A stretch of DNA of 32,000 bases from Gemmatimonadaceae bacterium (lineage in GTDB: Bacteria > Gemmatimonadota > Gemmatimonadetes > Gemmatimonadales > Gemmatimonadaceae), in the NCBI GenBank assembly GCA_036493735.1, contig DASXPH010000106.1, positions 29,110 to 61,109 of the forward strand, given 5' to 3'. Below are positions 834-22,814 of the stretch, piece after piece; the stretch's first letter is position 1; every line of letters starts with the position of its first letter. Below the pieces are notes generated by a model, which was not told the origin of the DNA, ran no database searches, and worked only from the letters and a program-made list of their open reading frames with translations. The translations under genes and the position numbers were made by a program.

Positions 834-955
834 GCGTTGAGCGTTGAGCGTTGAGCGCTGAGCGTTGGCGGTTGGGCGCGGCTGAGAGATGAGACACGCG
901 AATGGCACGGTCGGTTGGCGTGGCGCCTCAACGCCCAACGCTCAACGCCCAGCGA
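834..955. repeat. Inverted arrays of a 7-nt tandem unit: (GCGTTGA)n at 834-878 and (TCAACGC)n at 928-955, with a spacer of about 49 nt.
   Basis: Left arm reads GCGTTGA GCGTTGA GCGTTGA GCGCTGA GCGTTGG CGGTTGG. Right arm reads TCAACGC CCAACGC TCAACGC CCAGCGA. It lies between the stop of 942..1304 (-) and the ATG of permease F at 832. A second copy of the same family is at 20143-20253. Confidence 0.85.
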
Positions 956-1304
956 CCGGCTCGGCGCGCATAGGTTGGAACCAGCGGGCCGTGCCCTGCC
1001 GAAACAGGAGCCAGACGATCAGCATGGTCAGAGCCGCGTGCATCGAGAGCTCGCGGATGTTGCCGAACGCGCTGAGGACCACATGAAAGGTGATCCAGGC
1101 GACCGCCAGCCAGCGCGCCCAGTTCCGGCCTCGGAGCAGGAAAACTGCGGCGACGACCGCGACGAACTCGGTGAGCTCGATCCAGACGCCCTCCGAAGGT
1201 GTCGTTAGCAGATCGTGGAAGTGCGCGACGAAGCCGCCGATGCCGACGGCGAGATATGCGCCGGCAACGACGAGTACGGCCACGGGAGGGCGGACGAAGG
1301 TCAT
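942..1304 (-). CDS. Small integral membrane protein of unknown function (about 4 TM helices).
   Basis: 120 aa ORF with hydrophobic stretches (VAVLVVAGAYLAVGIGGFVA, FVAVVAAVFLL, WLAVAWITFHVVLSAF, AALTMLIVWLLF). No family recognised. Its 3' end overlaps the right arm of the heptamer repeat. Confidence 0.5.
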   Translation of the reverse strand: MTFVRPPVAVLVVAGAYLAVGIGGFVAHFHDLLTTPSEGVWIELTEFVAVVAAVFLLRGRNWARWLAVAWITFHVVLSAFGNIRELSMHAALTMLIVWLLFRQGTARWFQPMRAEPVAGR

Positions 1305-2277: not shown

Positions 2278-4416
2278 CTAACGGCTTGGCTGCGCTTCGA
2301 CCTCCGCCTGCAGACCCGCGCGCGCCATCGGCATCGAGCGAGGACGAATGCCGGTTGCGTCATAGATCGCGGCGCCGATCGCTGGCGCCATGCCCATGAT
2401 TGGTGCCTCGCCCGCGCCCATCGCCGGTTTGTCCTTACGGTTCATCAGCACCACCTCGATTTTCGGCACATCGGAGAAACGGGGCACCCGGTACTGCGCG
2501 AGGTGCGCGTTCCGCACCGCACCGTGATCGAAGTCGATCGCCTCGAACAAGGCACCGCCAATTCCCTGGATCATCGCACCCACGATCTGATTTCGGAGTC
2601 CATCCGGGTTGATCGTGGGCCCGTTGTCGAACGCCGTGACGGCGCGAACGACGCGCGGCTCGCGCACGCCGTCGCGCGGCTCGACAGCGATCTCGGCGAA
2701 CGTCGCGAAGTACCCTCCCTTCTCGAACCCACCACCCATCCCGTATCCGTGCCCAGTGGGTGCTTTCTTGCCCCACCCGAAGCGCTCGCCAGCCGCCGTG
2801 AAGACGTCGCGGAGCCGAGCATCCTGGATGTTCTTGAGGCGGAACGCCAGCGCGTCCATCGTCAGGATGGCGGCGAGCTCGTTGATGTGCGTCTCGCGCG
2901 CGAAATGATTCGCTGTCGCCGCGAGGCCGCGGTACGATCCCTGACGCAGCGGGGTGTCACTCGGATGGTAGGTGACACGCTGGTTGGGAATCTCGTACCA
3001 CGGCGCGATCGCCGCCGGGCCGGAGTTGTAGTTGTCGAACGACCACGCGACGAGCGTGCCGTCGTTATGCACACCAGCATCGACGTCGATCACACCCGCC
3101 GGCCTGAAATACGCCCAGCGGAACTCCTCCTCGCGCGTCCACACCAGCTTCACTGGCTTGCGCGCCGCGCGCGCGAGACGCGCCGCTTCCACCGCGCACT
3201 CGCCAGTGTGTTTCCCACCGTACCCCGAGCCCGTGTCGGGCACGATCACCCGGACGCGTTCCTGGGAAAGGCTGAACGCTTCAGCCAACTCGTCGCGTAC
3301 AGCGAACGGGCGCTGAGTGCCAGTCCAGACGGTGAGCTTGTCACCCTGCTGATCGTGTGACCATTCTGCCACGGCGGCCCGAGGCTCGAGGGGCACATGG
3401 GCGATGTACGCCACCGTGTAGCTACGCGTTAGGCGCTTCGCGGCGGCGGCGAGCGCCGCATCGACATCGCCCTTGACGATCGGTCCACCGCGGCCGCCTT
3501 CCCCGCCGCGCTCTCCGCTCTCTTTCGGCCGCGTCGACTTGAGGTACGCATAGATATCGCGCGAATCCGGGAGCGGTCCGTTAGGCGGCGTCCACACGGC
3601 GCGCACCGCGGCGAGCGCGCGCGTCGCCGTGTCGTTATCGGGCGCGACCACGCCAGCGAAGTCGCCGTCCCGCGTGACTACCACGCCACGAAACTTCGCC
3701 GCCGGACCACTATCAAACTCGGCGAGCTTCGATCCGTAGGCGATCGGACGCACCACCTTACCGACCAGCATGCCCGGACGCACGATGTCGGACGTGTAGG
3801 AATGCCGTCCCGTGACGAGCTCGCGCCCTTCCACGTTTGGCACCGATGTCCCAGCGACACGCCATCTGGTCGGGTCGGTGAGCTCCGCGTCGTCACGTAC
3901 ACTCTCCACGAGTCGGCGTCCTTTCGTGAGATCACCGTAGGCGACGGTGCGTCCCGACTTCGGATCGTGAACGCGGCCGTCGGCTGCCGTTAGGCTCGTT
4001 GGCGTGACTCTCCATTGCTGCGCGGCAAGACCGATGAGCAGGTCGCGCGCGGCCGCGCTCACCTTTCGCAGCTTCGTCCCCATCTGCGGCGTGGATAGGC
4101 TGCCGAAGGTGCCCATGTCGAAGGGTGTGAGCTCCGTGTCACCCATGACCATCTGAATGGACGACATCGGAACGCGGAGCTCCTCGGCAACCTCCTGCGC
4201 GAGCGAGGTGCGGATGCCCTGGCCGAACTCCACTTTGCCGGTGTAGACGGTCACGCGTCCATCGCCAGCGACATGCAGCCATGCGCCGATTTGCTCCCCT
4301 TGGTTGCTGATGCCTGCTGACGGGTGGCTGGTTGTTGCAGCGAAGAGGTCACGGCTGACAAGGGTGACCACGAGCCCCGCGCCGAAGCGCTCCAGAAATT
4401 CCCGTCGCGTGGTCAT
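2278..4416 (-). CDS. Molybdopterin-binding large subunit of a xanthine dehydrogenase/aldehyde oxidase-family enzyme (IorB-like), Tat-exported.
   Basis: 712 aa. Twin-arginine N-terminus MTTRREFLERFGAGLVV. Length and sequence are typical of IorB-type subunits. A 4-nt ATGA overlap with the upstream 2Fe-2S subunit gene indicates an operon. Confidence 0.88.
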   Translation of the reverse strand: MTTRREFLERFGAGLVVTLVSRDLFAATTSHPSAGISNQGEQIGAWLHVAGDGRVTVYTGKVEFGQGIRTSLAQEVAEELRVPMSSIQMVMGDTELTPFDMGTFGSLSTPQMGTKLRKVSAAARDLLIGLAAQQWRVTPTSLTAADGRVHDPKSGRTVAYGDLTKGRRLVESVRDDAELTDPTRWRVAGTSVPNVEGRELVTGRHSYTSDIVRPGMLVGKVVRPIAYGSKLAEFDSGPAAKFRGVVVTRDGDFAGVVAPDNDTATRALAAVRAVWTPPNGPLPDSRDIYAYLKSTRPKESGERGGEGGRGGPIVKGDVDAALAAAAKRLTRSYTVAYIAHVPLEPRAAVAEWSHDQQGDKLTVWTGTQRPFAVRDELAEAFSLSQERVRVIVPDTGSGYGGKHTGECAVEAARLARAARKPVKLVWTREEEFRWAYFRPAGVIDVDAGVHNDGTLVAWSFDNYNSGPAAIAPWYEIPNQRVTYHPSDTPLRQGSYRGLAATANHFARETHINELAAILTMDALAFRLKNIQDARLRDVFTAAGERFGWGKKAPTGHGYGMGGGFEKGGYFATFAEIAVEPRDGVREPRVVRAVTAFDNGPTINPDGLRNQIVGAMIQGIGGALFEAIDFDHGAVRNAHLAQYRVPRFSDVPKIEVVLMNRKDKPAMGAGEAPIMGMAPAIGAAIYDATGIRPRSMPMARAGLQAEVEAQPSR

Positions 4417-4942: not shown

Positions 4943-6409
4943 TCAGCTGATAGGGAGCACAAGGTGAAAGGTGGCGCCGCCTCGCCGATTGTTCTCTCCC
5001 CATAACGTGCCGCCATGCGAGGTCGCGATCGTGCGCGCGACCGTGAGGCCAAGCCCCAGCCCTTCTGGTTTCGTCGTGTAGAAGGGCTCGAACACGCGCT
5101 CGGCGGATACGTTAGGCAAGCCGGCTCCCGAATCGGCGACGAGCACCTCGACATGCTGAGCGTCGGGCCGAAACAGCTCGACGCGAAGCTGCCGGCTCGG
5201 CGCCGGCGTGCCATTCATTGGGTCGCACCCATTCACAATGAGGTTGACGATGACCTGCAACAGCTTGACTGCATCGCCTCGCACGGGGGGCAATCTATCG
5301 GCAAAATGCACGTTCAGCTCGACGTCCGCGAGCTCAAGGGCACTTCTGCTCAATGCGAGCGCGTCGCGGACGACTTTCTCGACATCGAGCGTCTCGAAGC
5401 GCGACTCTCCATTCCTCAGAAAGAGCCGCAGGTGAGTGATGACACTGGCGGCGTGACGATTCTCGCTCTCGATGTCGGAAAGTGTGGCGCGAAGCATCGG
5501 CAGGTCCGTGGGCTGTCGCGCGAGCATGAGCCTGGCCGCTTGCGCGTTCGCGAGAATCGCCGTCAACGGCTGGCGCAGCTCGTGGGCGAGGGCGACAGAG
5601 AGCTCGCCGGCGGTGGCGATCCGCGTCACGTGCGAAAGCTGGTTCCGCTGATCCTCCAGTGCGCTTGCAATCAGGGTGCGCTCGCGGATGACTGCCGCGA
5701 GCAGCATGACGGGTAGAGAGATTGCGATCCAGTACAGCTGCAGGGACAGCACGACATCGTTGCTCGCCGACAAGACGAATGGCCCCAGTTGACGGGAGGC
5801 GCCCGCAATCGAGAGTGCGGCAATGCACAACAATGAAATGCTCGCGCCCAGCGGCCCAAGCCGTACTGCAGCCCAGATGAGAGGGGGGAACGTCAAGACG
5901 AGCAGCCAGGGGAAACGGGCGAGCTGAGGCCCGGCGGTGACAGCAATGACGCCCACGACGATGACTGTACCCATGATCGTTGCCGCTTCGGCGACGGCTC
6001 CTTTCGATATCGCACGCCACCGCTTCGCACCAAGTGCGCACAGCAACACAGCCGGTGTGACGAGCAGCAAAGGCGTCAGGTTGGCCATGACGAGGCGCGC
6101 AAAGGCAATCGGGGGAGAGAAAAAGGTCTCCAACCCTGCGAGCGAGCGTACGAAACCGGGTCCAGTCAAGGCGAGCGACACAGGCATCACGACGGCGAGG
6201 CACAGGTAGATGAGCACCTCAAGGCCGATCTGGGAACGCTGAAAGAGTACTCCCTGGCTGAGCCGTGCCGTCCAGTAATACCCAGTGCCAAAGAGGATCA
6301 GCCAGACTCGCGATCGCGCTGCGCGGATGAGCACCGCACGGACCCGCTCTTCGAAGTGGAAGTCGGAAAGGAAATCCGACCTCTTGGTCGCGCCTTCAAT
6401 GCGTTCCAT
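4943..6409 (-). CDS. Membrane sensor histidine kinase with a polytopic (MASE1-like) N-terminal domain. No cognate response regulator is adjacent.
   Basis: 488 aa. H-box ALAHELRQPLTAI; ATPase motifs LIVNGCD, DSGAGLP, GLGLGLTVARTIATSHGG. The N-terminal ~250 aa are multi-TM and contain PPLIWAAVRLGPLG, which resembles MASE1. Confidence 0.85.
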   Translation of the reverse strand: MERIEGATKRSDFLSDFHFEERVRAVLIRAARSRVWLILFGTGYYWTARLSQGVLFQRSQIGLEVLIYLCLAVVMPVSLALTGPGFVRSLAGLETFFSPPIAFARLVMANLTPLLLVTPAVLLCALGAKRWRAISKGAVAEAATIMGTVIVVGVIAVTAGPQLARFPWLLVLTFPPLIWAAVRLGPLGASISLLCIAALSIAGASRQLGPFVLSASNDVVLSLQLYWIAISLPVMLLAAVIRERTLIASALEDQRNQLSHVTRIATAGELSVALAHELRQPLTAILANAQAARLMLARQPTDLPMLRATLSDIESENRHAASVITHLRLFLRNGESRFETLDVEKVVRDALALSRSALELADVELNVHFADRLPPVRGDAVKLLQVIVNLIVNGCDPMNGTPAPSRQLRVELFRPDAQHVEVLVADSGAGLPNVSAERVFEPFYTTKPEGLGLGLTVARTIATSHGGTLWGENNRRGGATFHLVLPIS

Positions 6410-6528: not shown

Positions 6529-9198
6529 CTAGTCAGCCCGAAGCACGCTCAACGGATCGCTCCGAGCAGCGCGACGCGCCGGCAGGTAACACGCCGCGAG
6601 CGCGATCCCTGCCAGGAGCAGTGGCAAGGCCAGCAGTACGACCGGATCCGTTGGGCTCACGTCGTAGAGAAGGCTCCCAAGCAAACGGGTGACCGCGAGC
6701 GCGCCTCCGACGCCCAGCGTGACGCCCACCAAGGCGAGGAGAGCGCCCTCGCCGAGCACGAGCCTGACCACCGCGCGCGGATCGGCGCCGATGGCGAGTC
6801 GGATGCCGAACTCGCGGCTGCGATTGGCGACGTGGAGCGACATCACTCCATAGATGCCTACCGCCGCCAGCAACAGCGCGACCAGCGCGAAGCCGCCGAG
6901 CAGGAGCTTCGTTAGGCGTCGCGTCGCGAACGTCTGATCAATAATGTTGGAGAACGACGTCACGTCGTCGAGCGGAATCGCCGGCTCGACTTCGGCGACA
7001 ATGCGGCGTGCCGCCGCGATCGCACTCGCGCTCGATCCGTTCGTCCGAATCACCAGTGAAAACGGAGTATCGCCCGTTTGTGGGATGCTCTGATACAGGT
7101 GCGGCTCCGGTGGAAGCGCCGGGTCACCGTCGCGGACCGTGCCCACGACGCCGATGATCGTGAACCAGGTTGGGGTGCCCGTCGCGCGAATACGATGGCC
7201 GAGCGCCTCGGCGCCCTTCCAGTAACGGTTGGCGATGGTGACGTCGACGATGCCGACCGGCAGACTCGTCGAGTCGTCCGTGGCAGCGAAGTCGCGCCCA
7301 TAGAGCAGCGGAATGCCGATCGTCTTGAAGTATCCGGGACTCACTCCAATCCGATAAGCCTGAGACTCGTTGCCGCTCGAGGGCACCGGTCTGCCGTCGA
7401 TCAGGTATCCATCGTAGTCACCGTTTTGACTCATCGGCAGTCCTGTCGTGAGCGCCGCGGTCTGGACTCCGGGGATCGCGCGCACGCGCGGCAGTATAGC
7501 ATTTACGAATGTGTTCAGTCTGACCGCGTCATTCCCGATTCGCGGCGGTACCCACAGCGCCATGGACGTCACACCGTCGGGTTGAAAACCGAAATCAAGT
7601 TGCGTCAGGCGCTGAAAACTCTTCAGCACAAGGCCGGCGGCAATCAAGAGCACCACGGACAAAGACAGCTGTACCACGACGAGCGCGTTGTTGACTCTCC
7701 GCGAGCCGGCATGCGAGCTCTCACGTTGTCCCGCTGTGAGGTCCGACGTGAGCTGAACCCTGCCGGCGTGAATAGCTGGAAGGAGGCCGAACAGGAGACC
7801 GCTCGCGAGCGATACCGCTAATGTGAACGCGAGCACGCGACCATCGACGGAGACTTCGTCGATGCGCGGTAGCGTGGCGAGATTCGAGTGCGTGAAGAAG
7901 CGAACCGCGACTATCGCGAGTCCGACACCCACGACCGCGCCGAGCAGGGCGAGTGCGACGCTCTCGGTGAGCAGCTGGCGCATCACTCGCCTTCCGCTCG
8001 CCCCGAGCGCGGCGCGCAGCGTGATCTCACGCTGCCGCGCCGCGGCCCTTCCAGACAACAAAGTTGCGACATTCGCGATCGCGATTAATAAAATCAGCGT
8101 CACTGCCGCGAGCAGAACTGTCAACGAACGCGCACTATTGCCGGTGATCTGCTCGTGGAGCGGCGTAACGAGCGTCTTCATGCGCGTCTTGCTGGGATCT
8201 ACCGATGCACTGACGACGTGCTGCTGCCGCGCCCACTCCCACATGATCGCTGTCGTCTGCCGCTCGGCGTGCTCCACTGTGACACCAGGCTTCAGCCGTG
8301 CAAGTCCCGCATTGAAAAACCCCCACCGCCAGTTCGGATCCAAGCCCACGGGGAGATACGCGCTGATTCCCGGCCGCGGGAACTCGAAGCTCGCCGGCAT
8401 GACGCCAACGACGCGTATTGGTTGTCCATCGATATCGATCGTCTTCCCGATCACAGAGGGATTACCACCGAAGCGCGAGCGCCACATCCCATCGCTGAGA
8501 ATCATCACCGTGTTCTTCCCTGGCGAATCTTCTTCCGTGGTGAACTCCCGACCGATTACCGGGCCGACACCGATGGCGCGGAAGAACTGCGCCGTTACAC
8601 GGAGGATCCGAATGCGCTGCGGCCCCTTGGCATCCTGCACCGCTACGCTACCACCTCGGTAACCGGCAAATGCGCTGAAGTCCGTCGAGCGGTCGCGGTA
8701 CATCGCGATGTTCATCGGATTGAGACCCCAACTATCGAGGCCCTTCTCCGGATACGATTGAAAGATCCCGACAATCCGGTCGGACTGCGGATACGGCAGC
8801 GGACGCAAGAGAATGCTGTTCACGAGTGTGAACATCGCCGTGGTCGCACCAATACCCAGAGCTAGCGTAACGATGGTGACGGCAGCGAACGTCGGCATAC
8901 GCCGAAAGGTGCGAAGTGCGTAGCGGAAGTCGGTGAAGAGAGACTCGAGCCATTCCATGAGTCGTACCTCGCGAGCGTATTGCCGGTCGATGGTGAGACA
9001 TTCGTCACGAACGCCAGCCCGATCGCCAAACCGATCGTGTGCGCTGGCGCGGGCAGCTTCAGGTGGTAGTCCGAGCTGTTTGAGCTTCTCCTCGCGCATG
9101 CTGAGATGAAACGCGAGCTCGTCGTCGATGTCGCGCTCGATGGAGCGCTCTCCGAGTCGCAGACGGAGCAGCCGCCGCCAACCGGGCGCCGGACTCAC
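6529..9198 (-). CDS. ADOP-type duplicated FtsX/MacB permease with a cytoplasmic N-terminal prefix domain ('permease A').
   Basis: 889 aa. Prefix DIDDELAFHLSMREEKLKQLGLPPEAARASAHDRFGD, then [34 protein letters not shown] (TM1). Two periplasmic-domain plus FtsX units. C-terminus REFGIRLAIGA...YLPARRAARSDPLSVLRAD. The GTG start overlaps the PadR-A stop (GTGA). Confidence 0.92.
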   Translation of the reverse strand: MSPAPGWRRLLRLRLGERSIERDIDDELAFHLSMREEKLKQLGLPPEAARASAHDRFGDRAGVRDECLTIDRQYAREVRLMEWLESLFTDFRYALRTFRRMPTFAAVTIVTLALGIGATTAMFTLVNSILLRPLPYPQSDRIVGIFQSYPEKGLDSWGLNPMNIAMYRDRSTDFSAFAGYRGGSVAVQDAKGPQRIRILRVTAQFFRAIGVGPVIGREFTTEEDSPGKNTVMILSDGMWRSRFGGNPSVIGKTIDIDGQPIRVVGVMPASFEFPRPGISAYLPVGLDPNWRWGFFNAGLARLKPGVTVEHAERQTTAIMWEWARQQHVVSASVDPSKTRMKTLVTPLHEQITGNSARSLTVLLAAVTLILLIAIANVATLLSGRAAARQREITLRAALGASGRRVMRQLLTESVALALLGAVVGVGLAIVAVRFFTHSNLATLPRIDEVSVDGRVLAFTLAVSLASGLLFGLLPAIHAGRVQLTSDLTAGQRESSHAGSRRVNNALVVVQLSLSVVLLIAAGLVLKSFQRLTQLDFGFQPDGVTSMALWVPPRIGNDAVRLNTFVNAILPRVRAIPGVQTAALTTGLPMSQNGDYDGYLIDGRPVPSSGNESQAYRIGVSPGYFKTIGIPLLYGRDFAATDDSTSLPVGIVDVTIANRYWKGAEALGHRIRATGTPTWFTIIGVVGTVRDGDPALPPEPHLYQSIPQTGDTPFSLVIRTNGSSASAIAAARRIVAEVEPAIPLDDVTSFSNIIDQTFATRRLTKLLLGGFALVALLLAAVGIYGVMSLHVANRSREFGIRLAIGADPRAVVRLVLGEGALLALVGVTLGVGGALAVTRLLGSLLYDVSPTDPVVLLALPLLLAGIALAACYLPARRAARSDPLSVLRAD

Positions 9199-9542
9199 GC
9201 GAGCTCCACCGACGTCCGCCTCAGCACCCCGGCGATCGCCTCAGCGTGGCGATGCCAGAGCGGCGCCTGGGCGCGAAAGCGTGCGCGGCCAGCAGTGGTG
9301 AGCTTATAGAATTTTGCCCGACGATTGTTGTCCGACACGCCCCACTCGCTCGCGATCCAGCCGCGGCGCTCGAGGCGGTGGAGCGCTGGATAGAGCGTCC
9401 CTTCCTCGAGGAGGAGCAGCGACGCCGTGGCGCCCTCGATCCACTCACTGATGCCGTAGCCATGCATCGAGCCCCAGCTGAGTGTCTTGAGGATCAGCAG
9501 ATCCAGACTGCTGCGAAGGAGATCGGTTTCGGTGTCGGCCAT
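9195..9542 (-). CDS. PadR-family transcriptional regulator (Acidobacterial-type), 'PadR-A'.
   Basis: MADTETDLLRSSLDLLILKTLSWGSMHGYGISEWI...EGTLYPALHRLERRGWIASEWGVSDNNRRAKFYKLTTAGR. Start taken at the internal ATG 9542 (residue 19 of the track ORF), preceded by an AAGGGA Shine-Dalgarno-like sequence. Confidence 0.9.
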   Translation of the reverse strand: MADTETDLLRSSLDLLILKTLSWGSMHGYGISEWIEGATASLLLLEEGTLYPALHRLERRGWIASEWGVSDNNRRAKFYKLTTAGRARFRAQAPLWHRHAEAIAGVLRRTSVELA

Positions 9543-9552
9543 AGGTCCCTTA

Positions 9553-9601
9553 CCCTTGTGACACAAGGGATGGTAAAAGCGTTGCCATAGCGACACAAGG
9601 G
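9553..9601 (-). promoter_or_regulatory. Candidate PadR-A promoter and operator: palindrome CCCTTGTG-N1-CACAAGGG (9553-9569) plus a second half-site copy 32 bp away.
   Basis: GACACAAGGG occurs at 9560-9569 and 9592-9601, an offset of 32 bp. On the coding (-) strand: TTGTGT (9598-9593), 17 nt, TACCAT (9575-9570). The distal box therefore covers the -35 and the palindrome covers the predicted transcription start. Confidence 0.4.
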
Positions 9602-9609
9602 GAGTGACT

Positions 9610-9694
9610 CGAACGGCGCGAAGTCCCGAACGACGCGAAGTCCCGAACGACGGACAATTCGAACTCAGCGCCCTTTGGAACTCAGCGCCGGTCG
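9610..9694. repeat. 17-nt tandem-unit array 1 (3 type-1 units followed by 2 type-2 units).
   Basis: CGAACGGCGCGAAGTCC (9610), CGAACGACGCGAAGTCC (9627), CGAACGACGGACAATTC (9644), then GAACTCAGCGCCCTTTG (9661), GAACTCAGCGCCGGTCG (9678). It lies in the divergent PadR-A/PadR-B intergenic region. Confidence 0.85.
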
Positions 9695-9697
9695 CCT

Positions 9698-9751
9698 TCT
9701 AGTTGACATTCTACCAGAAGGAGCGCATACTCTGGTAGAATGTCAACTAGA
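9698..9751 (+). promoter_or_regulatory. Perfect 21-bp inverted repeat spanning the PadR-B promoter and start codon (candidate operator).
   Basis: TCTAGTTGACATTCTACCAGA (9698-9718), 12-nt spacer AGGAGCGCATAC, then TCTGGTAGAATGTCAACTAGA (9731-9751); 21/21 complementary. TTGACA (9703-9708), 17 nt, CATACT (9726-9731). The PadR-B ATG (9740) lies inside the right arm. Confidence 0.6.
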
Positions 9752-10096
9752 GACGAATCGCAGGCCCTCCTTCAGGGCACCCTCGACCTACTTGTCCTGC
9801 GTGTCCTCGCGCTTGGCTCACACCATGGCCACGGCATCGTCGTCGCCATCCAGTCGCGGTCGGGGCACACCCTCCTCGTGGATCATGGCTCCCTCTACCC
9901 TGCCCTCCAGCGCCTCGAACAGCGCGGCTGGATCAAGGGTGCATGGGGCCTGTCCGACAACAATCGCCGCGCGCGCTTCTACTCCCTCACGGCGCTCGGT
10001 CGAAAACATCTCACGATCGAAACCAGCCGCTGGAATCGACTCGTCGAATCCATTGCCCGAGTCATGGACCCCAATCCCACAACGGAGAACGCCTGA
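9740..10096 (+). CDS. PadR-family transcriptional regulator, 'PadR-B'.
   Basis: MSTRDESQALLQGTLDLLVLRVLALGSHHGHGI...HGSLYPALQRLEQRGWIKGAWGLSDNNRRARFYSLTALGR. The stop overlaps the permease B start (TGATG). Confidence 0.92.
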   Translation: MSTRDESQALLQGTLDLLVLRVLALGSHHGHGIVVAIQSRSGHTLLVDHGSLYPALQRLEQRGWIKGAWGLSDNNRRARFYSLTALGRKHLTIETSRWNRLVESIARVMDPNPTTENA

Positions 10097-12705
10097 TGTT
10101 CGGCCGCCGTTCGCAACGAGACTTCGAGGACGAGATTCGCTCGCACCTCCAAATGGAGATCGAACGCCTCCAGGCACTCGGCATGTCCCGCAGCGACGCC
10201 GAGCGTGCCGCGCGTCGACACTTCGGCAATGTTGGTGTCGCTGAAGACAACTTCTACCACATGAATCGCTTCGCATGGCTCGACGACACCGGCCGCGACT
10301 TGCGACATGCGATGCGCGCGCTGCTACGCACGCCTGGATTTCTGTTCATCACAGTTGTGACGCTGGCACTCGCGATCGGCGCCACCGCCGGCATGTTTGG
10401 CGTCGTCAACACCGTATTGCTCGAGCCACTGCCATTCCCGCATCCGGAGCGGCTTGTCAGCGTCCAGGGTACCGCGCCAGGCACCGATCTAACTCAGCGG
10501 TTCGATCTCGGCCTCGATTTCTACCTGCACTACAAGGAACGCTCGAAGCTCATCGACGGCATTCTCACGTTCAGTAGTGGGACTTCGACCTTCCGCACTG
10601 ACGAACGCGTCGAGCGCATTGAAATGTCATGGGTGACGGACGACATGTACGCGACGCTGGGCGTTCATCCGCAATTGGGACGCGTTCCGGTGCCTGACGA
10701 CGATGGCAACGCCGTCGTCATCAGCGATGAGCTCTGGAACACCTGGTTCGGACGGGACCCATCGGTGATCGGGAAATCCTTTTTCGTGTCGGATACCACG
10801 AAGAAGATCGTCGGCGTGATGCCGCGCGGATTCCATTTTCCGAACGACAACACGCTGCTCTGGATCTCGAACAACGTACGTCTCAAAGATGTACGGCCGG
10901 GCAATTTCGGAATGCCGATCCTCGTGCGCATGAAAGAGGGTGTGAGTCAGGAGCAGTTGGCCGCGGACATGACACGGCTGGCAAAGGAGCTGCCGGCTCG
11001 CTTTGGCGGAGCGCCTAACTACGCGCGGATAATCAAGAGCTACCGCGCGGTCGTCAGCTCCGTGCTCGACCGCATGGTTGGACCAACGCTCAGAACATCG
11101 CTCTGGGTGCTGCTCGGCGCGGTCACGGTGGTGTTGCTCATCGCCTGTGCCAATGTCGCCAACTTGTTCATGGTTCGCGCCGAGTCGCGTCGACGCGACC
11201 TCACGGTGCGTCGTGCGATCGGCGCGTCGCGCGCGCAGCTCGTCCGCTTTCAGATGGCCGAGGCGTCTGTCGTCGCACTCGCGGCTGGCGTGCTCGCGGT
11301 GGTTCTGAGCACGGTTACGCTGCCGCTCTTTGTGCGCGCGGCGCCGCAAGGCATTCCGCGGCTTGGCGAGGTCGGGCTCGATCTGCCGACCATCGCGGTG
11401 ACGTTCGGTCTCGTGATTGTCGTGGCACTTCTGTGCGGCGCCGCGCCGGCGATCCGCGCCTCTTCACCCGACTTGACGGCGCTTCGCGAGGGCGGCCGCG
11501 GCTCCACGCGGGGACGTCGCTGGGGGAGGGACCTGCTCGTCATCGGACAGACGGCGCTCGCGCTGGTGCTGATTATCGGCGCCGCGCTGCTGGTGGAGAG
11601 CTTCCAGCGGCTCCGCCACGTCAATCCTGGCTACGACATCAAGGGTATATACACCTTCCAGTTTGCGCCGCAGCAACCGCAGCTTCGCGATGGACCGTCG
11701 TTAGGCCGGATGCATCTCCTGGTCATGGATCGGTTACGCGCGTTGCCGGGCGTGACGACTGTCGGCGTCGTAAACAACATCCCGCTCGACGAGGGCACGG
11801 ACGGCGTCCGGGTGACCGCGGAGGGAATGCCGAGCGACGGTGGCGGCGCGCCGATCAACATGAACTTCACGGGCGGAGACTATTTCCGCGCCATGGGAAT
11901 CAAGCTGCTGCAGGGGCGCACGTTCACAAACGAAGAAGCCGTGACGCCCAATTCCAATGTCATCATCAGTCGCGCGGCCGGCGAGAAACTCTGGCCCGGT
12001 CAGAATCCACTCGGAAGAAGAATCCGTCCGCGCTTCGGACGTCAGGACACCCTCGCGTTCACGGTCGTCGGTGTCGTGAACGACGTGAAGCAGCTCGATT
12101 GGCGTGAGGCCGGCGACGCAGTGATCTATTTCCCGCTCACGGGTCCGTTCGCTGGTGCTTGGGGAATGGGCTCACCCGCCTATGTCGTCAAGTCGCCGCG
12201 CGCGGAGATGCTGAAGGGCGAGGTGCGACAGATCGTGCACGAGGTTGCGCCCGAAGCGCCGGTGTACCGTGAGTACACCATGGAATTCCTCTCGCGCCGG
12301 TCAATGATCCAGCTTTCGTTCACGATGCTCACGCTCGGCGTGGTGTCTGCGCTCGCACTCATTCTCGGCGCGCTAGGGCTATACGGCGTGCTGTCGTACG
12401 TCGTTGCGCAGCGGACGCGCGAGATCGGCGTGCGCATGGCGCTGGGAGCATCGGCCGGCGCGGTGCGGCGACAGGTGGTTTCCGAGGGCGCGAAGGTCGT
12501 GCTCGTCGGCGTGGCGATCGGCATCGTCGCCGCATTCGCGTCGACACGACTGCTCGGCACGCTCCTGTACGGCGTGAAGGCTGTGGATCCGCTGGTCTTT
12601 GCCGCGATGTCGCTCGTGATGCTTGGCATTGGCGTGCTGGCCAGCTACATGCCCGCCCGCCGCGCCAGCAGTGTGGATCCGATCGAGGCGCTGCGCAGCG
12701 ATTGA
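10096..12705 (+). CDS. ADOP-type duplicated FtsX/MacB permease with N-terminal prefix domain ('permease B').
   Basis: Start moved to ATG 10096 (residue 52 of track ORF 9943..12705). MFGRRSQRDFEDEIRSHLQMEIERLQALGMSRSDAERAARRHFGNV..., then DLRHAMRALLRTPGFLFITVVTLALAIGATAGMF. First FtsX unit [32 protein letters not shown]; second REIGVRMALGAS...YMPARRASSVDPIEALRSD. Confidence 0.92.
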   Translation: MFGRRSQRDFEDEIRSHLQMEIERLQALGMSRSDAERAARRHFGNVGVAEDNFYHMNRFAWLDDTGRDLRHAMRALLRTPGFLFITVVTLALAIGATAGMFGVVNTVLLEPLPFPHPERLVSVQGTAPGTDLTQRFDLGLDFYLHYKERSKLIDGILTFSSGTSTFRTDERVERIEMSWVTDDMYATLGVHPQLGRVPVPDDDGNAVVISDELWNTWFGRDPSVIGKSFFVSDTTKKIVGVMPRGFHFPNDNTLLWISNNVRLKDVRPGNFGMPILVRMKEGVSQEQLAADMTRLAKELPARFGGAPNYARIIKSYRAVVSSVLDRMVGPTLRTSLWVLLGAVTVVLLIACANVANLFMVRAESRRRDLTVRRAIGASRAQLVRFQMAEASVVALAAGVLAVVLSTVTLPLFVRAAPQGIPRLGEVGLDLPTIAVTFGLVIVVALLCGAAPAIRASSPDLTALREGGRGSTRGRRWGRDLLVIGQTALALVLIIGAALLVESFQRLRHVNPGYDIKGIYTFQFAPQQPQLRDGPSLGRMHLLVMDRLRALPGVTTVGVVNNIPLDEGTDGVRVTAEGMPSDGGGAPINMNFTGGDYFRAMGIKLLQGRTFTNEEAVTPNSNVIISRAAGEKLWPGQNPLGRRIRPRFGRQDTLAFTVVGVVNDVKQLDWREAGDAVIYFPLTGPFAGAWGMGSPAYVVKSPRAEMLKGEVRQIVHEVAPEAPVYREYTMEFLSRRSMIQLSFTMLTLGVVSALALILGALGLYGVLSYVVAQRTREIGVRMALGASAGAVRRQVVSEGAKVVLVGVAIGIVAAFASTRLLGTLLYGVKAVDPLVFAAMSLVMLGIGVLASYMPARRASSVDPIEALRSD

Positions 12706-12715
12706 GGAGAGGCGT

Positions 12716-15367
12716 CTACTCTTCGCGCAACGCCAGCACCGGAGCGATCCGGAGCGCCCGACGTGCCGGCACGCTGGTCGCCAAAATCGAGATCACGATC
12801 ATTGTAAGCGTCGCGAAGCTGAAGACACCGAAATCCGCCGGGGGCACCTGGTAGAGCATCGATCCAACGAGCCTCGCCACAGCGACGGATGCAGCGAGGC
12901 CGATTGCTACGCCGACGAACAGCAACCTACCCATCTGCGCCGCGACGACCTGCAACACGTCTCGATGCTGCGCTCCCAGAGCCACACGCACGCCAATTTC
13001 TTTGGTCCGCTGCGTGACGGCATAGCTCACGATCCCGTACAGGCCTATGGCCGCGAGCAGCGACGCGATGAGCGCCAATAGAATCAGAAGCTGCATGGCA
13101 GCATGTTGTCCCTCGAGCGGGCCATCGACATAGGTCTCGAGCGGCATCGCGTTGAAGACGGGTACGCCCGGATCGAGCGCTCGTACGGCCTGCTCGATCG
13201 CTCGCACGGCCTCCGGGACGGCGCCCGCCGTCCGCAGCAGTACGGCGTAACCATACTCTGGCCGATACACCTGTCGTACGGGCACGTAGAAGTACGGCGT
13301 CGGCGCGTCGCTGAGACGATAGAACTTCGTGTCCTTCACGACACCGACGATCGTGAACCAGCGGCCCCACCCGTGCACGCGCACGCCTAACGCGGCACCG
13401 CCGCCGAGGAAGTGCCGCACGAACGCGTCGTTCACGATCATCACCGGCACGTGCGCCGAATCATCGGCGAGGGTGAACTCGCGCCCCGCGACGAGCGGCA
13501 CCCGAAGCACCTTGAAGTAGTCCGGACCAATCGCCGCGCGATAAAGCTTCATGTTCTCGTTCGGCGCTGGCGCATAGCCCTCGACTCGGAGCTCCTCCCA
13601 TGATCCGGCACCGAGACTCAGCGGAACGTAATCCGTGTAGCTGGCCGCCTGGACGCCCGGCTCGTGGGAGAGCCGATCCGCGACGTTGCTGAGAAACGCT
13701 TCGGCGCGTGCGGAGTCGTAGCCGGCGAGCGTCACGCTCACGGAAGCCATCGCGACGTCTTGTGCATCGAAGCCCGGCGACACCGCACGCGTATGGCGAA
13801 AACTCTCGAAGAACAATCCCGCTCCAACGAGCGACACCACGGCCAGTGCCATCTCGAGGGTCACGAGCGTGCGCCGCGCCCGCGCAGCACCGCGGTTGCC
13901 CGCCGTTCCGCGCCCGCCGCTGCTGAGCGCTTCGCCTAACGCGGCACGCGAGCCCTGAAGGGCCGGGACGATCCCAGCGAGCACCGTCACCGCGATTGCG
14001 AGCAAGGCGGTGAACGCCAACACGCTTCGGTCCACGTGCGGCGCGAGCAGGGCCGGTCGCGCAAACGACGGTAGGAGCGAATTGAGCGAACGCGCAAGCC
14101 AGGCCGCACCCAACAGTCCCAGCGTGGCCCCGCTGATCGCGAGAAGGGACGCCTCGGTGAGCAGTTGCCGGATGAGGCGAGCCCGCGGCGCGCCGAGCGC
14201 GAGCCGAAGCCCGAGCTCGCGCGCTCGCGCCGTCGCGCGCGCGAGAAGCAGACTCGCCGCGTTTGCGCAGACGATGAGTAACACCAATCCACAGGCGACG
14301 AGCAGTACCACCAGGGGCTCGCGGAGTGCGTCCTGCGCGCCCCAATGCGATTGCCAGATTGGCATCAGTCGGCCTTCCATCCCCTTGCTGACAGCGCCGT
14401 TCACGCTCGCCATGAACGCGGTGAACGATTCGACTTCGGCGCGCGCGGCATTGAAGTTCACACCATCCCGGAGACGCGCCAGCACGCGGAAGGTTCGCGT
14501 ACCCCGATCGCGGAGCCACCACCCGCCGGTCGGGACGATCTGGCCCAGCATCGCCGCCGGCACCCACACGTCGAACTCCTCGCCCGACATCGAGCCATGA
14601 AAGGCCCGTGATGCGACGCCGACCACCCGAAACGGAAATTGGTTGATGTCGACGACACTGCCGACGACGGAACTGTCGCCGTGCCACCGGCGCTGCCACA
14701 ACTCGTAGCTGATGACGGCGAGTGGCTGCGCCCCCTCGTTCTCCTCGACCGTCGACGGAAAGAAGCCGCCGAGCGCCGGTTGGACGCGCAACACCTCGAA
14801 GAAGTTGGCGGACACGAGCTCGCCCCAGACGCGCTCCGAATGCGCGGCATCGCCTAACGCGAGCGACGTCGGATAGGCGGCCGCGAGCCCGTCGAAGGAT
14901 CTGAGGTATCTCCGAAGATCGCGGTAATCGAGCCAGGACGTTGGCGTCCAGCTGCCGGAAGCGGTCGTCGTCTCGAGCGCGAAGATACGCTCGGGTGCAC
15001 GGGTGCCGGGGAGTGGATCGAGCAAGACGCTCCGTGTCCAACTGAATACGGTCGCCGTCGCCGCAATGCCGATCGCGAGTGTAATGACGATCACCGACGA
15101 CATCGTCGGCACCCGCCGCATCTGTCGGAGCGCGTAACGCACGTCCATCAGGATCGACTCGAGTGTGGGCCACTGCCAGACCGCACGGCCCTCCTCCTGG
15201 ATGTACGTCACGTTCCCGAACGCGCGCCGTGCCTCCGCACGCGCGTCAGCCGGCGAAAGGCCCCGTGCGATCAACGCGTCGGTCTTTTCTTCGAGGTGCG
15301 ACTGCATCTCGCTCGCGAGATCGTCGTAGAGTTGGCGCTGGCGCACCAGGGCATCGAGCCATCTCAT
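12716..15367 (-). CDS. ADOP-type duplicated FtsX/MacB permease with N-terminal prefix domain ('permease C').
   Basis: 883 aa. DDLASEMQSHLEEKTDALIARGLSPADARAEARRAFGNV, then DVRYALRQMRRVPTMSSVIVITLAIGIAATATVF. C-terminus [12 protein letters not shown]...SVPARRALRIAPVLALREE. ATGA overlap with the PadR-C stop. Convergent with permease B, only 10 bp apart. Confidence 0.92.
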   Translation of the reverse strand: MRWLDALVRQRQLYDDLASEMQSHLEEKTDALIARGLSPADARAEARRAFGNVTYIQEEGRAVWQWPTLESILMDVRYALRQMRRVPTMSSVIVITLAIGIAATATVFSWTRSVLLDPLPGTRAPERIFALETTTASGSWTPTSWLDYRDLRRYLRSFDGLAAAYPTSLALGDAAHSERVWGELVSANFFEVLRVQPALGGFFPSTVEENEGAQPLAVISYELWQRRWHGDSSVVGSVVDINQFPFRVVGVASRAFHGSMSGEEFDVWVPAAMLGQIVPTGGWWLRDRGTRTFRVLARLRDGVNFNAARAEVESFTAFMASVNGAVSKGMEGRLMPIWQSHWGAQDALREPLVVLLVACGLVLLIVCANAASLLLARATARARELGLRLALGAPRARLIRQLLTEASLLAISGATLGLLGAAWLARSLNSLLPSFARPALLAPHVDRSVLAFTALLAIAVTVLAGIVPALQGSRAALGEALSSGGRGTAGNRGAARARRTLVTLEMALAVVSLVGAGLFFESFRHTRAVSPGFDAQDVAMASVSVTLAGYDSARAEAFLSNVADRLSHEPGVQAASYTDYVPLSLGAGSWEELRVEGYAPAPNENMKLYRAAIGPDYFKVLRVPLVAGREFTLADDSAHVPVMIVNDAFVRHFLGGGAALGVRVHGWGRWFTIVGVVKDTKFYRLSDAPTPYFYVPVRQVYRPEYGYAVLLRTAGAVPEAVRAIEQAVRALDPGVPVFNAMPLETYVDGPLEGQHAAMQLLILLALIASLLAAIGLYGIVSYAVTQRTKEIGVRVALGAQHRDVLQVVAAQMGRLLFVGVAIGLAASVAVARLVGSMLYQVPPADFGVFSFATLTMIVISILATSVPARRALRIAPVLALREE

Positions 15368-15750
15368 GCCTCACCCCCCAGCGCAAGCACCAGCGTGATG
15401 CCTTCGAGCATCCGTTCGAAACGGGAGATCTCGATCCCCAGATGCTTGGAGCCAGCCCGCGTGATCCGATAGATGCGCACCCGGCGATTGGTCGCCGACA
15501 CTCCCCACTCGGCCTCGACGAGACGCTCCTTCAGCAAACGCTGAAGCGCGGGGTAGAGCGATCCCTCTTCGACTTGCAGGAGATTTTGGGAGGCTTGTTG
15601 GATGCGCTGCACGAGGGCATAGCCGTGCATCGGCTGCCGTTTGAGGAGGCGCAGCACCATGAGCTCGAGCGCCCCGGGGAAAAGGTCGCGCGATTCCGAA
15701 TCAGGCATGACGCGATCGAGAAGCGAGAGTAGTGGCCAGCCGATACCCAT
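15364..15750 (-). CDS. PadR-family transcriptional regulator, 'PadR-C'.
   Basis: ...LFPGALELMVLRLLKRQPMHGYALVQRI...EGSLYPALQRLLKERLVEAEWGVSATNRRVRIYRITRAGS. The start is uncertain: ATG 15750 (track) or ATG 15708 (MPDSESRDLF...), which matches the length of the other PadRs better. Confidence 0.88.
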   Translation of the reverse strand: MGIGWPLLSLLDRVMPDSESRDLFPGALELMVLRLLKRQPMHGYALVQRIQQASQNLLQVEEGSLYPALQRLLKERLVEAEWGVSATNRRVRIYRITRAGSKHLGIEISRFERMLEGITLVLALGGEA

Positions 15751-15806: not shown

Positions 15807-15983
15807 TCGCGCGGTTACCTGCGAAAGTTGCGAAGCTGACGTGCGGGTGCTAGACTTAGTGAGCGATACACGCCGTTCAACGCGTGGACATGTTCCGATC
15901 GATCAGGGGCCTGCCGAATGCGAGCAGGCCCCTTTTGTTTTCCGGCCAATCGTCGTTCGCCCCTCACTCCAGGAGTTTAGGAT

Positions 15984-16172
15984 ATGCGGACGAGGGCATT
16001 CGACGAGCATCGCGACTCGCCGCTCTGGCGCGCGCTGGAGGAGGTCGTCGCCGAATTGGTCGCGACACAGGAAATCACGATCAACACGGCGCCGGAGTAT
16101 GTGATCGGGTATCTCTGTCGCGAATTGATGGCGAAGCGAATGGTGTCAGCTGGCGCATCAGAAACCTCCTAG
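15984..16172 (+). CDS. Small hypothetical protein (62 aa).
   Basis: AGGAG lies 8 nt upstream of the ATG. GC-rich third codon positions. The sequence looks like a real protein (MRTRAFDEHRDSPLWRALEEVVAELVATQEITINTAPEYVIGYLCRELMAK...), unlike the Arg-rich overlapping frame of 15884..16234. Confidence 0.45.
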   Translation: MRTRAFDEHRDSPLWRALEEVVAELVATQEITINTAPEYVIGYLCRELMAKRMVSAGASETS

Positions 16173-16234
16173 CCGCCGGCCGCTCCGCGGCCGTTCACGT
16201 TAGGCAGATGATGTTTCCCGTTCCGAGGTTCCTC

Positions 16235-16663
16235 ATGCATTCGAAGACGATTCTCATGGTTCAATCGGGCAATGATTCCCTTTCACGTCTTCGCATGCGG
16301 CTGGAGGACCTAGGGTATACGATCGTCCAGGCCGCTGACGCGGCAACCGCCATGGACATCGCCAACCGCTCCGAAATTGCGCTTGTCGTGACGGAGTTAT
16401 ATCTCCGCCTCGGCACATGCCGCTGTCTCGGTCGTGTCATTGGCAGGTCGCCGGCGCTCCGACGCACCAAGCTGCTCGCGTACACAGCACACGGAAAGCG
16501 AAGAGATCGCGACTGGGCACAACGCATCGGCGCCGATGGATACGTGATCAGCCGTTCCGGCGATGAGCGTTTTCTCTCCGTCGTCGACCATCTGATGACC
16601 GCTCGGTCGAGACCGCGTCGCTATTGGGACGATGATGCGATTCACCAGAGCCGCCGAACATAG
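16235..16663 (+). CDS. Stand-alone receiver (REC)-like protein with degenerate phospho-acceptor residues (pseudo-receiver).
   Basis: Start moved to ATG 16235, with GAGG 6 nt upstream. Alternating beta/alpha pattern of CheY-like receivers: KTILMVQSGND (DD pocket replaced by QS), ALVVTELYL (Asp replaced by Glu), LLAYTAH (Thr kept), GADGYVISRS (Lys missing). Confidence 0.6.
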   Translation: MHSKTILMVQSGNDSLSRLRMRLEDLGYTIVQAADAATAMDIANRSEIALVVTELYLRLGTCRCLGRVIGRSPALRRTKLLAYTAHGKRRDRDWAQRIGADGYVISRSGDERFLSVVDHLMTARSRPRRYWDDDAIHQSRRT

Positions 16664-16999: not shown

Positions 17000-18163
17000 A
17001 TGACCAGTGCAAGGCTCTCGACATTCATCCGACAGAATGCCGAACCCATCTTGTCGGAGTGGGAAGCCTTCGCGCGCACGCTGCCACGGGGCTCCTCGAT
17101 GGATGTCGATGCACTTCGCAATCACGCGAAGGCGATGCTCGAGGATATCGCCAGAGACATGGAGACGCCGCAAACCGAACGCGAGCGCTCTGACAAATCG
17201 AAGGGCGTGCTACCTCAACGGCACACCGTTGCCGCGACCGAGCACGGCCATGCCCGTGCCGGTAGCGGATTCACTGTCGTGGAGATGGTTGCGGAGTTTC
17301 GCGCACTCCGTGCGACAGTGATTCGCCTGTGGACCGCGCAGCTGCCGCAGTTTGCCCAGGCGGAAGCCGACGACTTGATCCGCTTCAATGAGGCGATCGA
17401 CCAGGCGGTTGCCGAGTCACTCGAGCGTTATGCTGGTGAGATCAACGAAACACGAGAGCGGTTTCTTGCGATCCTCGGGCACGATCTCAAGAATCCGCTC
17501 GGCGCGATCGCGGCCTCGGTGAGTTTGCTGCGGGAGACCGCATCAGCTGGCGCGGAGCGGTCGAAGGTGATTCAGATCATCCAGAATGCCACGTTACGCA
17601 TGACGAATCTCGTCGCCGACATGCTGGAGCTCGCACTCAGCCGTCTGGGCGACGACATGCCCGTTCGTATGAGTGAAGTGAATATGCGAGATGTGATCGA
17701 ACGTGTCGTCGCGGAGATCCGTGCGACATACCCCACTGCGCAGATCACGACGAGCTTCCACGGCGATCTCGCCGGTCATTGGGACGCGTCACGGTTGACG
17801 CAGGCTTTGACGAACCTGATTGCAAATGCGGCCCAACACGGCGACCTGAGTAAACCCATCCACGTCATCGGCCGCGGCGACCGGACGGAAGTGTCGATAG
17901 AGGTGCGCAACAGCGGCCCGACCATTGGCAGCGAGAGACTCCGTCAGCTGTTCGAAGGACGCAGCGCAGCCCGTGGCGAGAGCCGCGATCGACGGCATCT
18001 CGGACTTGGGCTTTTCATCGTCGACAAGATCGTCGCTGCTCACGGTGGCTCCATCGACGTGCGGTCGGCGAATTCCGAGACAGCTTTCGTCGTTCATCTA
18101 CCGAGAGCGGAGCTCGGCCGGAAACCCAAAGCTCCCAGACTCGAAAATCGCGCGTCGGCCTGA
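17000..18163 (+). CDS. Soluble sensor histidine kinase with an RsbRD_N-like N-terminal domain.
   Basis: 387 aa. The N-terminus LSTFIRQNAEPILSEWEAFART resembles the RsbRD N-terminal domain. H-box FLAILGHDLKNPLGAI. ATPase motifs NLIANAAQHG, VRNSGPTI, GLGLGLFIVDKIVAAHGGSI. Confidence 0.85.
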   Translation: MTSARLSTFIRQNAEPILSEWEAFARTLPRGSSMDVDALRNHAKAMLEDIARDMETPQTERERSDKSKGVLPQRHTVAATEHGHARAGSGFTVVEMVAEFRALRATVIRLWTAQLPQFAQAEADDLIRFNEAIDQAVAESLERYAGEINETRERFLAILGHDLKNPLGAIAASVSLLRETASAGAERSKVIQIIQNATLRMTNLVADMLELALSRLGDDMPVRMSEVNMRDVIERVVAEIRATYPTAQITTSFHGDLAGHWDASRLTQALTNLIANAAQHGDLSKPIHVIGRGDRTEVSIEVRNSGPTIGSERLRQLFEGRSAARGESRDRRHLGLGLFIVDKIVAAHGGSIDVRSANSETAFVVHLPRAELGRKPKAPRLENRASA

Positions 18164-18472: not shown

Positions 18473-18579
18473 GGCGCGACGTCCCGAACGGCGCGACGTC
18501 CGGAACGGCGGAGCCTTCGCAACACCGCGCTCTTTGGAACTCAGCGCCGTTTGGAACTCAGCGCCCTTGGATTCCCTAA
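18473..18579. repeat. 17-nt tandem-unit array 2 (3 type-1 units followed by 3 type-2 units), between convergent genes.
   Basis: GGCGCGACGTCCCGAAC (18473), GGCGCGACGTCCGGAAC (18490), GGCGGAGCCTTCGCAAC (18507), then GCTCTTTGGAACTCAGC (18529), GCCGTTTGGAACTCAGC (18546), GCCCTTGGATTCCCTAA (18563). The two halves are imperfectly complementary, giving a possible bidirectional terminator hairpin. Confidence 0.85.
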
Positions 18580-20057: not shown

Positions 20058-20142
20058 TTCGTTGTCCGTCCGGTAGAAAGTTGAGTTCAGCTTCAGAGTC
20101 GACGGCAATGATGAGGGGCGGGCATGCGTAGGGGAAGACGTG

Positions 20143-20253
20143 GAGCGTTGGGCGTGGTGCGTTGCGCGTTGAGCGTTGAGCGTGAGGCGCTGACTGCTGG
20201 TGACTGACATCCCAACGCTCAACGCACAACGCCCAACGCTCAACGCTCAACGC
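20143..20253. repeat. Inverted arrays of the 7-nt unit, second copy: GCGTTGA-type units at 20143-20193 and TCAACGC-type units at 20212-20253.
   Basis: Left arm: GCGTTGG GCGTGGT GCGTTGC GCGTTGA GCGTTGA GCGTGAG GCGCTGA. Loop of about 18 nt. Right arm: CCAACGC TCAACGC ACAACGC CCAACGC TCAACGC TCAACGC. It sits at the 3' end of the M28 peptidase gene (stop at 20247-20249, inside the right arm) and upstream of the hydrolase gene. Confidence 0.85.
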
Positions 20254-22733: not shown

Positions 22734-22759
22734 GGATGACAGGGTCCCGACCACCATTT

Positions 22760-22810: not shown

Positions 22811-22814
22811 GATC

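Follow-up and report, generated by a model that had tools for sequence, protein, structure and literature searches.

The stretch of DNA analysed here, 32,000 nucleotides in length and referred to below as the window, originates from a Gemmatimonadaceae bacterium (assembly GCA_036493735.1, contig DASXPH010000106.1, positions 29,110 to 61,109) and carries genes for PadR-type transcription regulators adjacent to genes for large membrane permeases, which possess an additional N-terminal segment herein designated the prefix. The window, with a GC content of about 64%, encodes six permeases of the duplicated orphan permease family ADOP (TIGR03434), designated A to F, of which A to E are complete and F is truncated by the left edge. 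In the part that was compared, the window is identical to a 54.8-kb soil-type metagenome contig from JGI. The TIGR03434 scores of A to E ranged from 755 to 922 bits against the cut-off of 622.3, and in each of these permeases the MacB_PCD and FtsX domains are duplicated (two matches to each of the two Pfam models). Five PadR genes were identified, one directly upstream of each of A to E, and all five products pass both TIGR03433 (padR_acidobact; 125.6 to 141.6 bits, cut-off 101.8) and the Pfam PadR model. Permease F has neither the prefix nor a PadR gene, and thus represents a natural negative control. The positions of all these features are summarized in Table 1.

Table 1. Permeases, prefixes, PadR genes and candidate operator in the window (positions counted from the first letter of the window)
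Feature	Positions	Strand	Description
Permease A	6529-9198	-	ADOP; TIGR03434 877 bits; MacB_PCD+FtsX duplicated (Pfam MacB_PCD x2, FtsX x2)
Permease B	10096-12705	+	ADOP; TIGR03434 755 bits
Permease C	12716-15367	-	ADOP; TIGR03434 771 bits
Permease D	23162-25831	+	ADOP; TIGR03434 922 bits
Permease E	26347-28992	+	ADOP; TIGR03434 795 bits
Permease F	<1-832	-	N-terminal 277 aa in window; TIGR03434 profile positions 1-246, 193 bits
Prefix A	8932-9198	-	89 aa; NF038403 37.8 bits, residues 14-67; boundary set at the core motif
Prefix B	10096-10296	+	67 aa; NF038403 42.5 bits
Prefix C	15146-15367	-	74 aa; NF038403 56.0 bits
Prefix D	23162-23419	+	86 aa; NF038403 42.8 bits
Prefix E	26347-26589	+	81 aa; NF038403 36.9 bits
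PadR A	9195-9542	-	115-aa form, gene call on JGI contig (open reading frame could reach 9596); TIGR03433 125.6 bits; Pfam PadR 3.1e-19
PadR B	9740-10096	+	TIGR03433 141.6 bits
PadR C	15364-15750	-	Start codon uncertain; TIGR03433 126.1 bits
PadR D	22803-23159	+	TIGR03433 128.2 bits
PadR E	25904-26350	+	TIGR03433 139.7 bits; profile match from residue 39
Candidate PadR operator	9698-9751		Perfect 21-nt inverted repeat with 12-nt spacer, over -35/-10-like boxes and the PadR B ATG

An initial annotation of the sequence had described a hydrophilic extension on all five PadR-linked permeases and its absence from permease F, which was noted to have no PadR gene upstream. Both descriptions proved correct. 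The number of residues ahead of the motif D-x-R-[YFH]-A-[LM]-R and the first transmembrane helix (TM1) is 89, 67, 74, 86 and 81 for A, B, C, D and E, respectively, and the coordinates first proposed agree with these boundaries within 4 to 5 codons. The N-terminus of F reads MFDSFLQ-DLTYALR, with the core motif only 7 residues in, and no match to the prefix family NF038403 was detected for F in the profile scan of the window proteins. The open reading frame (ORF) directly upstream of F (942-1304, minus strand, 120 aa) is not PadR; its product is hydrophobic and gave no NCBIfam match.

All five prefixes are hydrophilic, with grand average of hydropathy values between -0.46 and -0.97 and with K+R and D+E balanced. 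The shared motif of the initial annotation matched none of the five as a literal regular expression, its spacings being slightly off, but a loosened core, [DE][LIFM]xxH[LVMI]-x(9-14)-G-x(4,5)-[AH]-x(6-9)-[FL]G[DNG], matched all five, and 37 homologues showed little or no variation in its G, A and G columns. The NCBI 'permease prefix domain', which the initial annotation had named, was also the right family: the five prefixes pass the curated cut-off (30 bits) of NF038403 (perm_prefix_1, 'permease prefix domain 1') with scores of 36.9 to 56 bits. The matches are located at residues 3-68 of A to E, and the ADOP profile starts at residues 67-88. A search with a profile built from the five prefixes retrieved 31,965 representative clusters at E <= 0.001, and among the 150 best of these 31,965 the domain was almost always N-terminal. 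An AlphaFold2 model of residues 1-115 of permease C, based on an alignment of 113 sequences (mean predicted local distance difference test score, pLDDT, 76), consists of helices at 2-34, 39-50 and 53-63, a juxtamembrane amphipathic helix at 69-85, which carries DxRYALR, and TM1 at 87-114. Altogether, the prefix is a helical domain of about 60 residues of family NF038403, which a conserved juxtamembrane helix links to TM1 of a permease with duplicated FtsX/MacB-PCD domains. The topology of the FtsX/MacB fold is established, and MacB has its ATPase domain in the position where the prefix sits here; it follows from this topology that the prefix lies on the cytoplasmic side.

The PadR and permease genes are closely packed. 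Relative to the end of the PadR stop codon, the permease starts at -4, -1, -4, +2 and -4 nt in A, B, C, D and E, respectively, with GTG as the start codon for A and ATG for the other four, and in 28 of the 38 adjacent pairs found in the survey described below the junction falls within -8 to +8 nt. As judged from the sequence of these junctions, the PadR and permease genes are translationally coupled. For PadR E, the true start is probably internal to the ORF listed in Table 1. Upstream of PadR B, the arms of the inverted repeat, TCTAGTTGACATTCTACCAGA-N12-TCTGGTAGAATGTCAACTAGA, cover a sigma-70-like promoter, and this position of the palindrome suggests autorepression by PadR. A related palindrome, TTGACAATCAACAAGA-N12-TCCTGTTGATTGTCAA, is located at the same relative position upstream of PadR in an external locus (L056, around 4060-4110), and two TTGACATTCTAGGGAAT-like boxes are present upstream of PadR D (22755-22811). 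The TTGACA...N12...TGTCAA design is common to only some loci, and no universal palindrome was found among 33 regions upstream of PadR genes.

For the six genes of the window alone, the coincidence of prefix and PadR gives a Fisher p of only 1/6 (0.17). We therefore surveyed 80 external loci (given below by L numbers) on one-genome-per-species contigs recorded as Acidobacteriota, Verrucomicrobiota and Gemmatimonadota, which were fetched by alignment of the permease core with the prefix removed, and scored every ADOP N-terminus for the prefix and for an upstream PadR gene by using window-built profiles. Counted gene by gene, 29 ADOPs outside the window had both, 15 the prefix only, 4 PadR only and 117 neither. 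The initial annotation had claimed that the prefix is present exactly when a PadR gene is present; this holds in the window (5/5 with and 1/1 without) but fails per gene, inasmuch as 15 of the 44 prefixed ADOPs in the external loci lack a PadR gene immediately upstream. From our reading of the locus layouts, 11 of these 15 occupy the second or third place in PadR-(prefix-ADOP)2-3 arrays. All four 'PadR only' genes do have extensions of 60-110 aa, which were missed by the profile hidden Markov model: one is a divergent perm_prefix_1, one is perm_prefix_2-like and two are of an unnamed type, each behind a correspondingly divergent PadR. Taken alone, the gene-level table looked like a partial refutation of the pairing, but the array layouts and the missed extensions account for the discordant cells.

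Counting by operon, 45 ADOPs had an extension and belonged to a PadR-headed operon, 5 had an extension only, 1 had PadR only and 94 had neither (Fisher p ~1e-30, for counts of paralogues that are not independent events). Large numbers of prefixed ADOPs without PadR, or the reverse, would have spoken against the rule; at this level they are few, and the claimed rule is valid per operon, not per gene. The association is significant because of the external loci and not because of the six window genes. An extension is found on each of the 38 ADOPs that immediately follow a PadR-like gene, and 115 of the 125 prefix-less ADOPs are in loci, up to 22 kb long, without any PadR-like gene. A prefix would not fit in 94 of the 118 prefix-less genes, where an in-frame stop codon occurs within 46 codons upstream of the core. 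Two permeases follow PadR in 5, and three permeases in 4, of the 33 PadR-headed operons; in such arrays several sensors may share one regulator. Examples of one PadR gene followed by two or three prefixed ADOPs are L056 (4108-12409), L018 (6849-15088), L040 (6696-15199), L080 (9372-17959), L051 and L027. In another locus, L057, a PadR-linked ADOP is frameshifted (19845-20400), which looks like decay.

The same pairing was observed outside these phyla. On Firmicute plasmids, five PadR genes detected by tblastn are each followed by a gene for a membrane protein, with an overlap or a 1-nt gap according to the annotated coordinates. The partners are VanZ in two cases, a DUF5673 protein in one and unknown proteins with multiple transmembrane segments in two, and NF038403 was found at residues 17-70 of all five (29.6-45.7 bits). 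The plasmids (L081-L085) are those of Priestia, B. thuringiensis, Paraclostridium and Clostridium, and the prefix is annotated by RefSeq in only one of the five. Prefix and PadR thus co-occur across phyla and on unrelated membrane bodies, and the prefix is not ADOP-specific. The possibility that the presence/absence pattern reflects chance or phylogenetic hitch-hiking, with no functional link, could draw on the non-significant p value within the window and on the non-independence of paralogues; but the operon-level counts come from 27 PadR-bearing loci recorded under three phyla, and the pairing recurs in Bacillota with other membrane bodies. We consider this explanation extremely improbable, and effectively refuted by the operon-level counts together with the Firmicute plasmid pairs.

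PadR and prefix also match in type. The prefix subtype equals the PadR subtype in all 38 adjacent pairs: main with main in 31/31, divergent with divergent in 4/4, and perm_prefix_2-like or unnamed with a distant PadR-like protein in 3/3. Within the main type (30 triples), the correlation of divergence was 0.43 between PadR and prefix, 0.19 between PadR and permease core, and 0.12 between prefix and core; the partial correlation between PadR and prefix was 0.42 (permutation p <= 0.0005). PadR divergence follows the prefix more than the permease body, as is compatible with co-evolution of the two.

Extensions of other classes were found in the prefix position. A second class on ADOPs, 60-105 aa in length and with the motif W..L...P..R....E.E, was noted in L032 (around 9600-10006), L062 (9505-21311), L079 (9480-10006) and L041 (around 340-968), in all four behind a distant PadR-like gene. 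The L079 extension matches NF038404 (perm_prefix_2) at 28 bits, and those of L032, L062 and L041 match no family. A union of perm_prefix_1 and the perm_prefix_2-like class into one family was rejected (hhalign probability, 0.1%). In L054, the ADOP (core start around 10000) has an N-terminal extension of 395 aa, composed of a helix-turn-helix (HTH) domain and a Ser/Thr protein kinase, in the position of the prefix. This fusion suggests that ADOP bodies serve as signal inputs.

These results bear on what the prefix is for. Many PadR-family repressors bind ligands directly, and the PadR proteins of the window could likewise sense a small molecule by themselves, as do PadR and LmrR; the prefix would then have a PadR-independent job, such as docking of a shared ATPase, oligomerisation or membrane insertion, and the co-occurrence would mark an 'inducible' subclass of ADOPs inherited as a block. 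That most ADOPs, at least 94 of about 145, do without the prefix would agree with this explanation, as would the absence of a PadR-prefix contact from the papers found. Against it, the prefix occurs with PadR on bodies of non-ABC type (VanZ, the DUF5673 protein and others), which makes a permease-specific job unlikely; the divergence of the prefix follows that of PadR and not that of the permease carrying it; the subtypes match in all 38 pairs; and in Listeria, where the PadR repressor LftR has the DUF1048 protein LftS as co-regulator, the inducer binds neither of the two proteins in vitro. We regard direct ligand sensing with an unrelated prefix as unlikely. One further interpretation, which we put forward tentatively, is that PadR and prefix form a two-part cassette, evolving and moving independently of the membrane body and with pair-specific recognition. 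If so, five paralogous dyads could coexist without cross-talk within a single 32-kb stretch, up to three prefixed permeases could draw on one PadR for integration of their signals, and the perm_prefix_2-like class, paired with a divergent PadR class of its own, would have solved the docking problem convergently.

A domain of this kind has been described. The HAAS ('HTH-associated alpha-helical signalling') domain (Pfam PF22564) was defined by Ravi et al. (mSystems 2024, PMC11237479; bioRxiv 2020) as three helices, the third being kinked at a GxP motif, with partial overlap with DUF1700, DUF1129 and DUF1048. It was described as always encoded beside a standalone PadR-like winged HTH (wHTH) protein, and was proposed to pass a conformational change to PadR so that the regulator is released or reconfigured (PMC11237479). 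The HAAS-PadR dyad was proposed as an alternative to two-component systems with histidine kinases, and the model was restated with VanZ as the sensor in eLife 2025 (PMC12419801). The initial annotation had suggested, as a point to be checked, that HAAS- or DUF1700-type modules are found on membrane proteins next to PadR and are proposed to act on it; the domain, its setting and the proposal are indeed in print (PMC11237479), but neither DUF1700 nor PF22564 directly matched the window prefixes.

In our interpretation, each pair of PadR and prefixed ADOP is probably one instance of this published dyad, namely a one-step signalling system without phosphorylation, in which PadR represses its own operon, the prefix binds PadR and the state of the periplasmic domains alters that binding. 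The data above establish identity, topology, coupling and association; how PadR and prefix touch, which way the effect runs and what the signal is are inferred as follows. A PadR dimer would repress its own operon at the palindromic operator overlapping the promoter, and the cytoplasmic prefix would provide the surface holding or reshaping PadR. Movements of the periplasmic MacB-type domains would be transmitted through TM1 to the prefix, in the reverse direction to the mechanotransmission of MacB. The altered grip of the prefix on PadR would then make transcription of the operon track the state of the permease. The signal could either release or capture PadR, between which the sequence does not decide. 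Prefix-less permeases such as F would stay outside this control circuit.

The prefix is firmly a member of NF038403; its assignment to HAAS is weaker, and relies on the published architecture and the shared context, with our own sequence and fold tests being negative or sub-threshold. Among the features expected of HAAS, the three consecutive alpha-helices are present in the model of permease C. With regard to the kink at GxP, two nearly invariant glycines, G36 and G51, fall where helix 1 meets helix 2 and helix 2 meets helix 3. The sequence 'GLP' exists in prefix A only and G-M-x-P in many homologues, the model at pLDDT 76 being too uncertain to judge the kink. A standalone PadR wHTH is the neighbour in 5/5 cases in the window, in 45/50 at the operon level elsewhere and in 5/5 on the Firmicute plasmids. 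In one Firmicute protein the NF038403 match and a match to Pfam HAAS (E 0.0018) fall on the same residues, and one divergent relative gave E 0.018 against HAAS. For DUF1700 (PF08006) and DUF1048 (PF06304), no match was obtained with the window prefixes or their relatives in single-sequence and member-wise scans, and a possible link of the prefix to these families comes solely from the published unification by HHpred (PMC11237479).

Several observations weigh against the interpretation as a HAAS-PadR dyad. None of the five window prefixes matched Pfam HAAS (gathering score, 27 bits) even at E <= 10. When 37 relatives were compared with Pfam, HAAS was the most recurrent family, but with 5 of 37, all sub-threshold (best E, 3.8e-4), and two family consensus sequences gave no match to HAAS or DUF1700 in Pfam. 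A Foldseek search of the permease C model (residues 1-115) against the Protein Data Bank (PDB) yielded nothing significant (best E, 0.91), and the HAAS reference structure 2O3L (DUF1048) was not among the 50 matches listed; with the prefix profile, only chance-level matches to PDB sequences were obtained, 2O3L again not being found. Short helical domains are difficult for Foldseek and profile searches alike. Besides the non-independence of the paralogues counted, a few real exceptions to the pairing exist: L071 has a prefixed ADOP with its core match in two pieces (7315-9875) and no PadR; in L021 (8336-9794) two ADOPs are separated by an inserted GTPase-like ORF, and the prefix of the downstream one has undergone internal shortening; and in L016 the second gene is without the prefix. 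These residual exceptions look like decay or rearrangement. The mirror-tree correlation between PadR and prefix could also arise from the two recombining together as adjacent DNA. No partner ATPase for the ADOPs is encoded in the window, and we found no report of demonstrated HAAS-PadR contact in the literature. A literature search for the permease prefix domain, for PadR with FtsX in Acidobacteria and for the duplicated orphan permease likewise found no mechanistic account.

Binding of PadR by the prefix might also be constitutive. The permease would then be a membrane tether or titrator, and expression would be set by permease dosage with no periplasmic input. The tight translational coupling, which implies fixed production ratios, and the arrays, which supply up to three prefixes per PadR, are in line with such titration, and the sequence gives no sign that the periplasmic domain is a sensor. 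On the other hand, the prefix is linked directly to TM1 by a conserved helix, and the fold is one that is known to transmit mechanical changes across the membrane, as seen from the model and from knowledge of MacB; an HTH and Ser/Thr kinase occupy the prefix position in the L054 ADOP; and in other lineages the HAAS module is carried on the sensor-type bodies PspC, LiaF and Toastrack (PMC11237479). A purely constitutive tether appears to us rather doubtful.

The dyad interpretation has a close precedent in the published HAAS-PadR exemplar ACO32024.1 (PMC11237479, main text and Table S4), which has the same order of PadR followed by permease, and an N-terminal helical module on a duplicated MacB_PCD/FtsX protein. 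The phylum-level habitat is alike, and so is the proposed logic, in which the module relays the state of the membrane protein to PadR (PMC11237479). There is no architectural difference, and the window adds five paralogous copies and a prefix-less copy side by side; the likeness is one of architecture strings, and the window prefixes are below the Pfam HAAS threshold. The NCBIfam models NF038403, TIGR03434 and TIGR03433, all three cut-offs of which are exceeded by the window proteins, name the families and carry no mechanism. In Listeria, LftR/LftS and LltR-lmo0600 resemble the window pairs in that the gene of a short PadR repressor shares its transcript with that of a HAAS-superfamily protein, LltR controlling an operon whose next gene (lmo0600) encodes a DUF1700 membrane protein. 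LftS differs from the window permeases in that its published description goes no further than a DUF1048 protein with unknown function and does not make it part of a permease; lmo0600 differs in being another protein with multiple transmembrane segments. Flux sensing by BceAB-BceRS is a parallel of another kind, in which a permease of the FtsX fold, equipped with a large extracytoplasmic domain, signals how active it is to the transcription system controlling its own expression. BceAB-BceRS employs a histidine kinase and a response regulator and includes an ATPase, whereas the window systems have a single PadR, a fused helical domain and no ATPase gene nearby.

In soil Acidobacteriota, Gemmatimonadota and Verrucomicrobiota, few gene families have expanded as much as the ADOPs or are as poorly understood. 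The pairing of PadR and prefix is real and general across soil bacteria, and its interpretation is already published; the window is hence a good example of it and not a discovery. With five cognate PadR/prefix pairs, one prefix-less control and one clear candidate operator, it provides a compact natural test set, and no new concept. What is added here are the operon-level numbers, the refinement by tandem arrays, the co-variation between PadR and prefix, and the second class of extension, which has no detectable similarity to perm_prefix_1 and is likewise paired with PadR-like regulators. These results should be useful for designing experiments on interaction and specificity.

Other elements were noted in and around the PadR-ADOP operons. 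Two histidine-kinase-like ORFs and one receiver-like ORF, judged by eye from the translations, are interspersed with these operons at 4943-6409 (minus strand), 15884-16663 (plus) and 17000-18163 (plus). A dispersed family of short tandem repeats occupies intergenic positions at 9610-9652, 18473-18510, 18533-18565, 22614-22712 and 28999-29090, and also at 834-879 and 20139-20253. The units are of 17 nt, such as CGCCGTTTGGAACTCAG and AACGGCGCGAAGTCCCA (2-6 copies), or of 7 nt (GCGTTGA), and several of the repeats border PadR-permease operons. Elsewhere, the plasmids NZ_CP007129.1 and NZ_CP007130.1 of Gemmatirosa kalamazoonensis, both complete replicons, gave 14 and 13 tblastn matches to PadR B, respectively.

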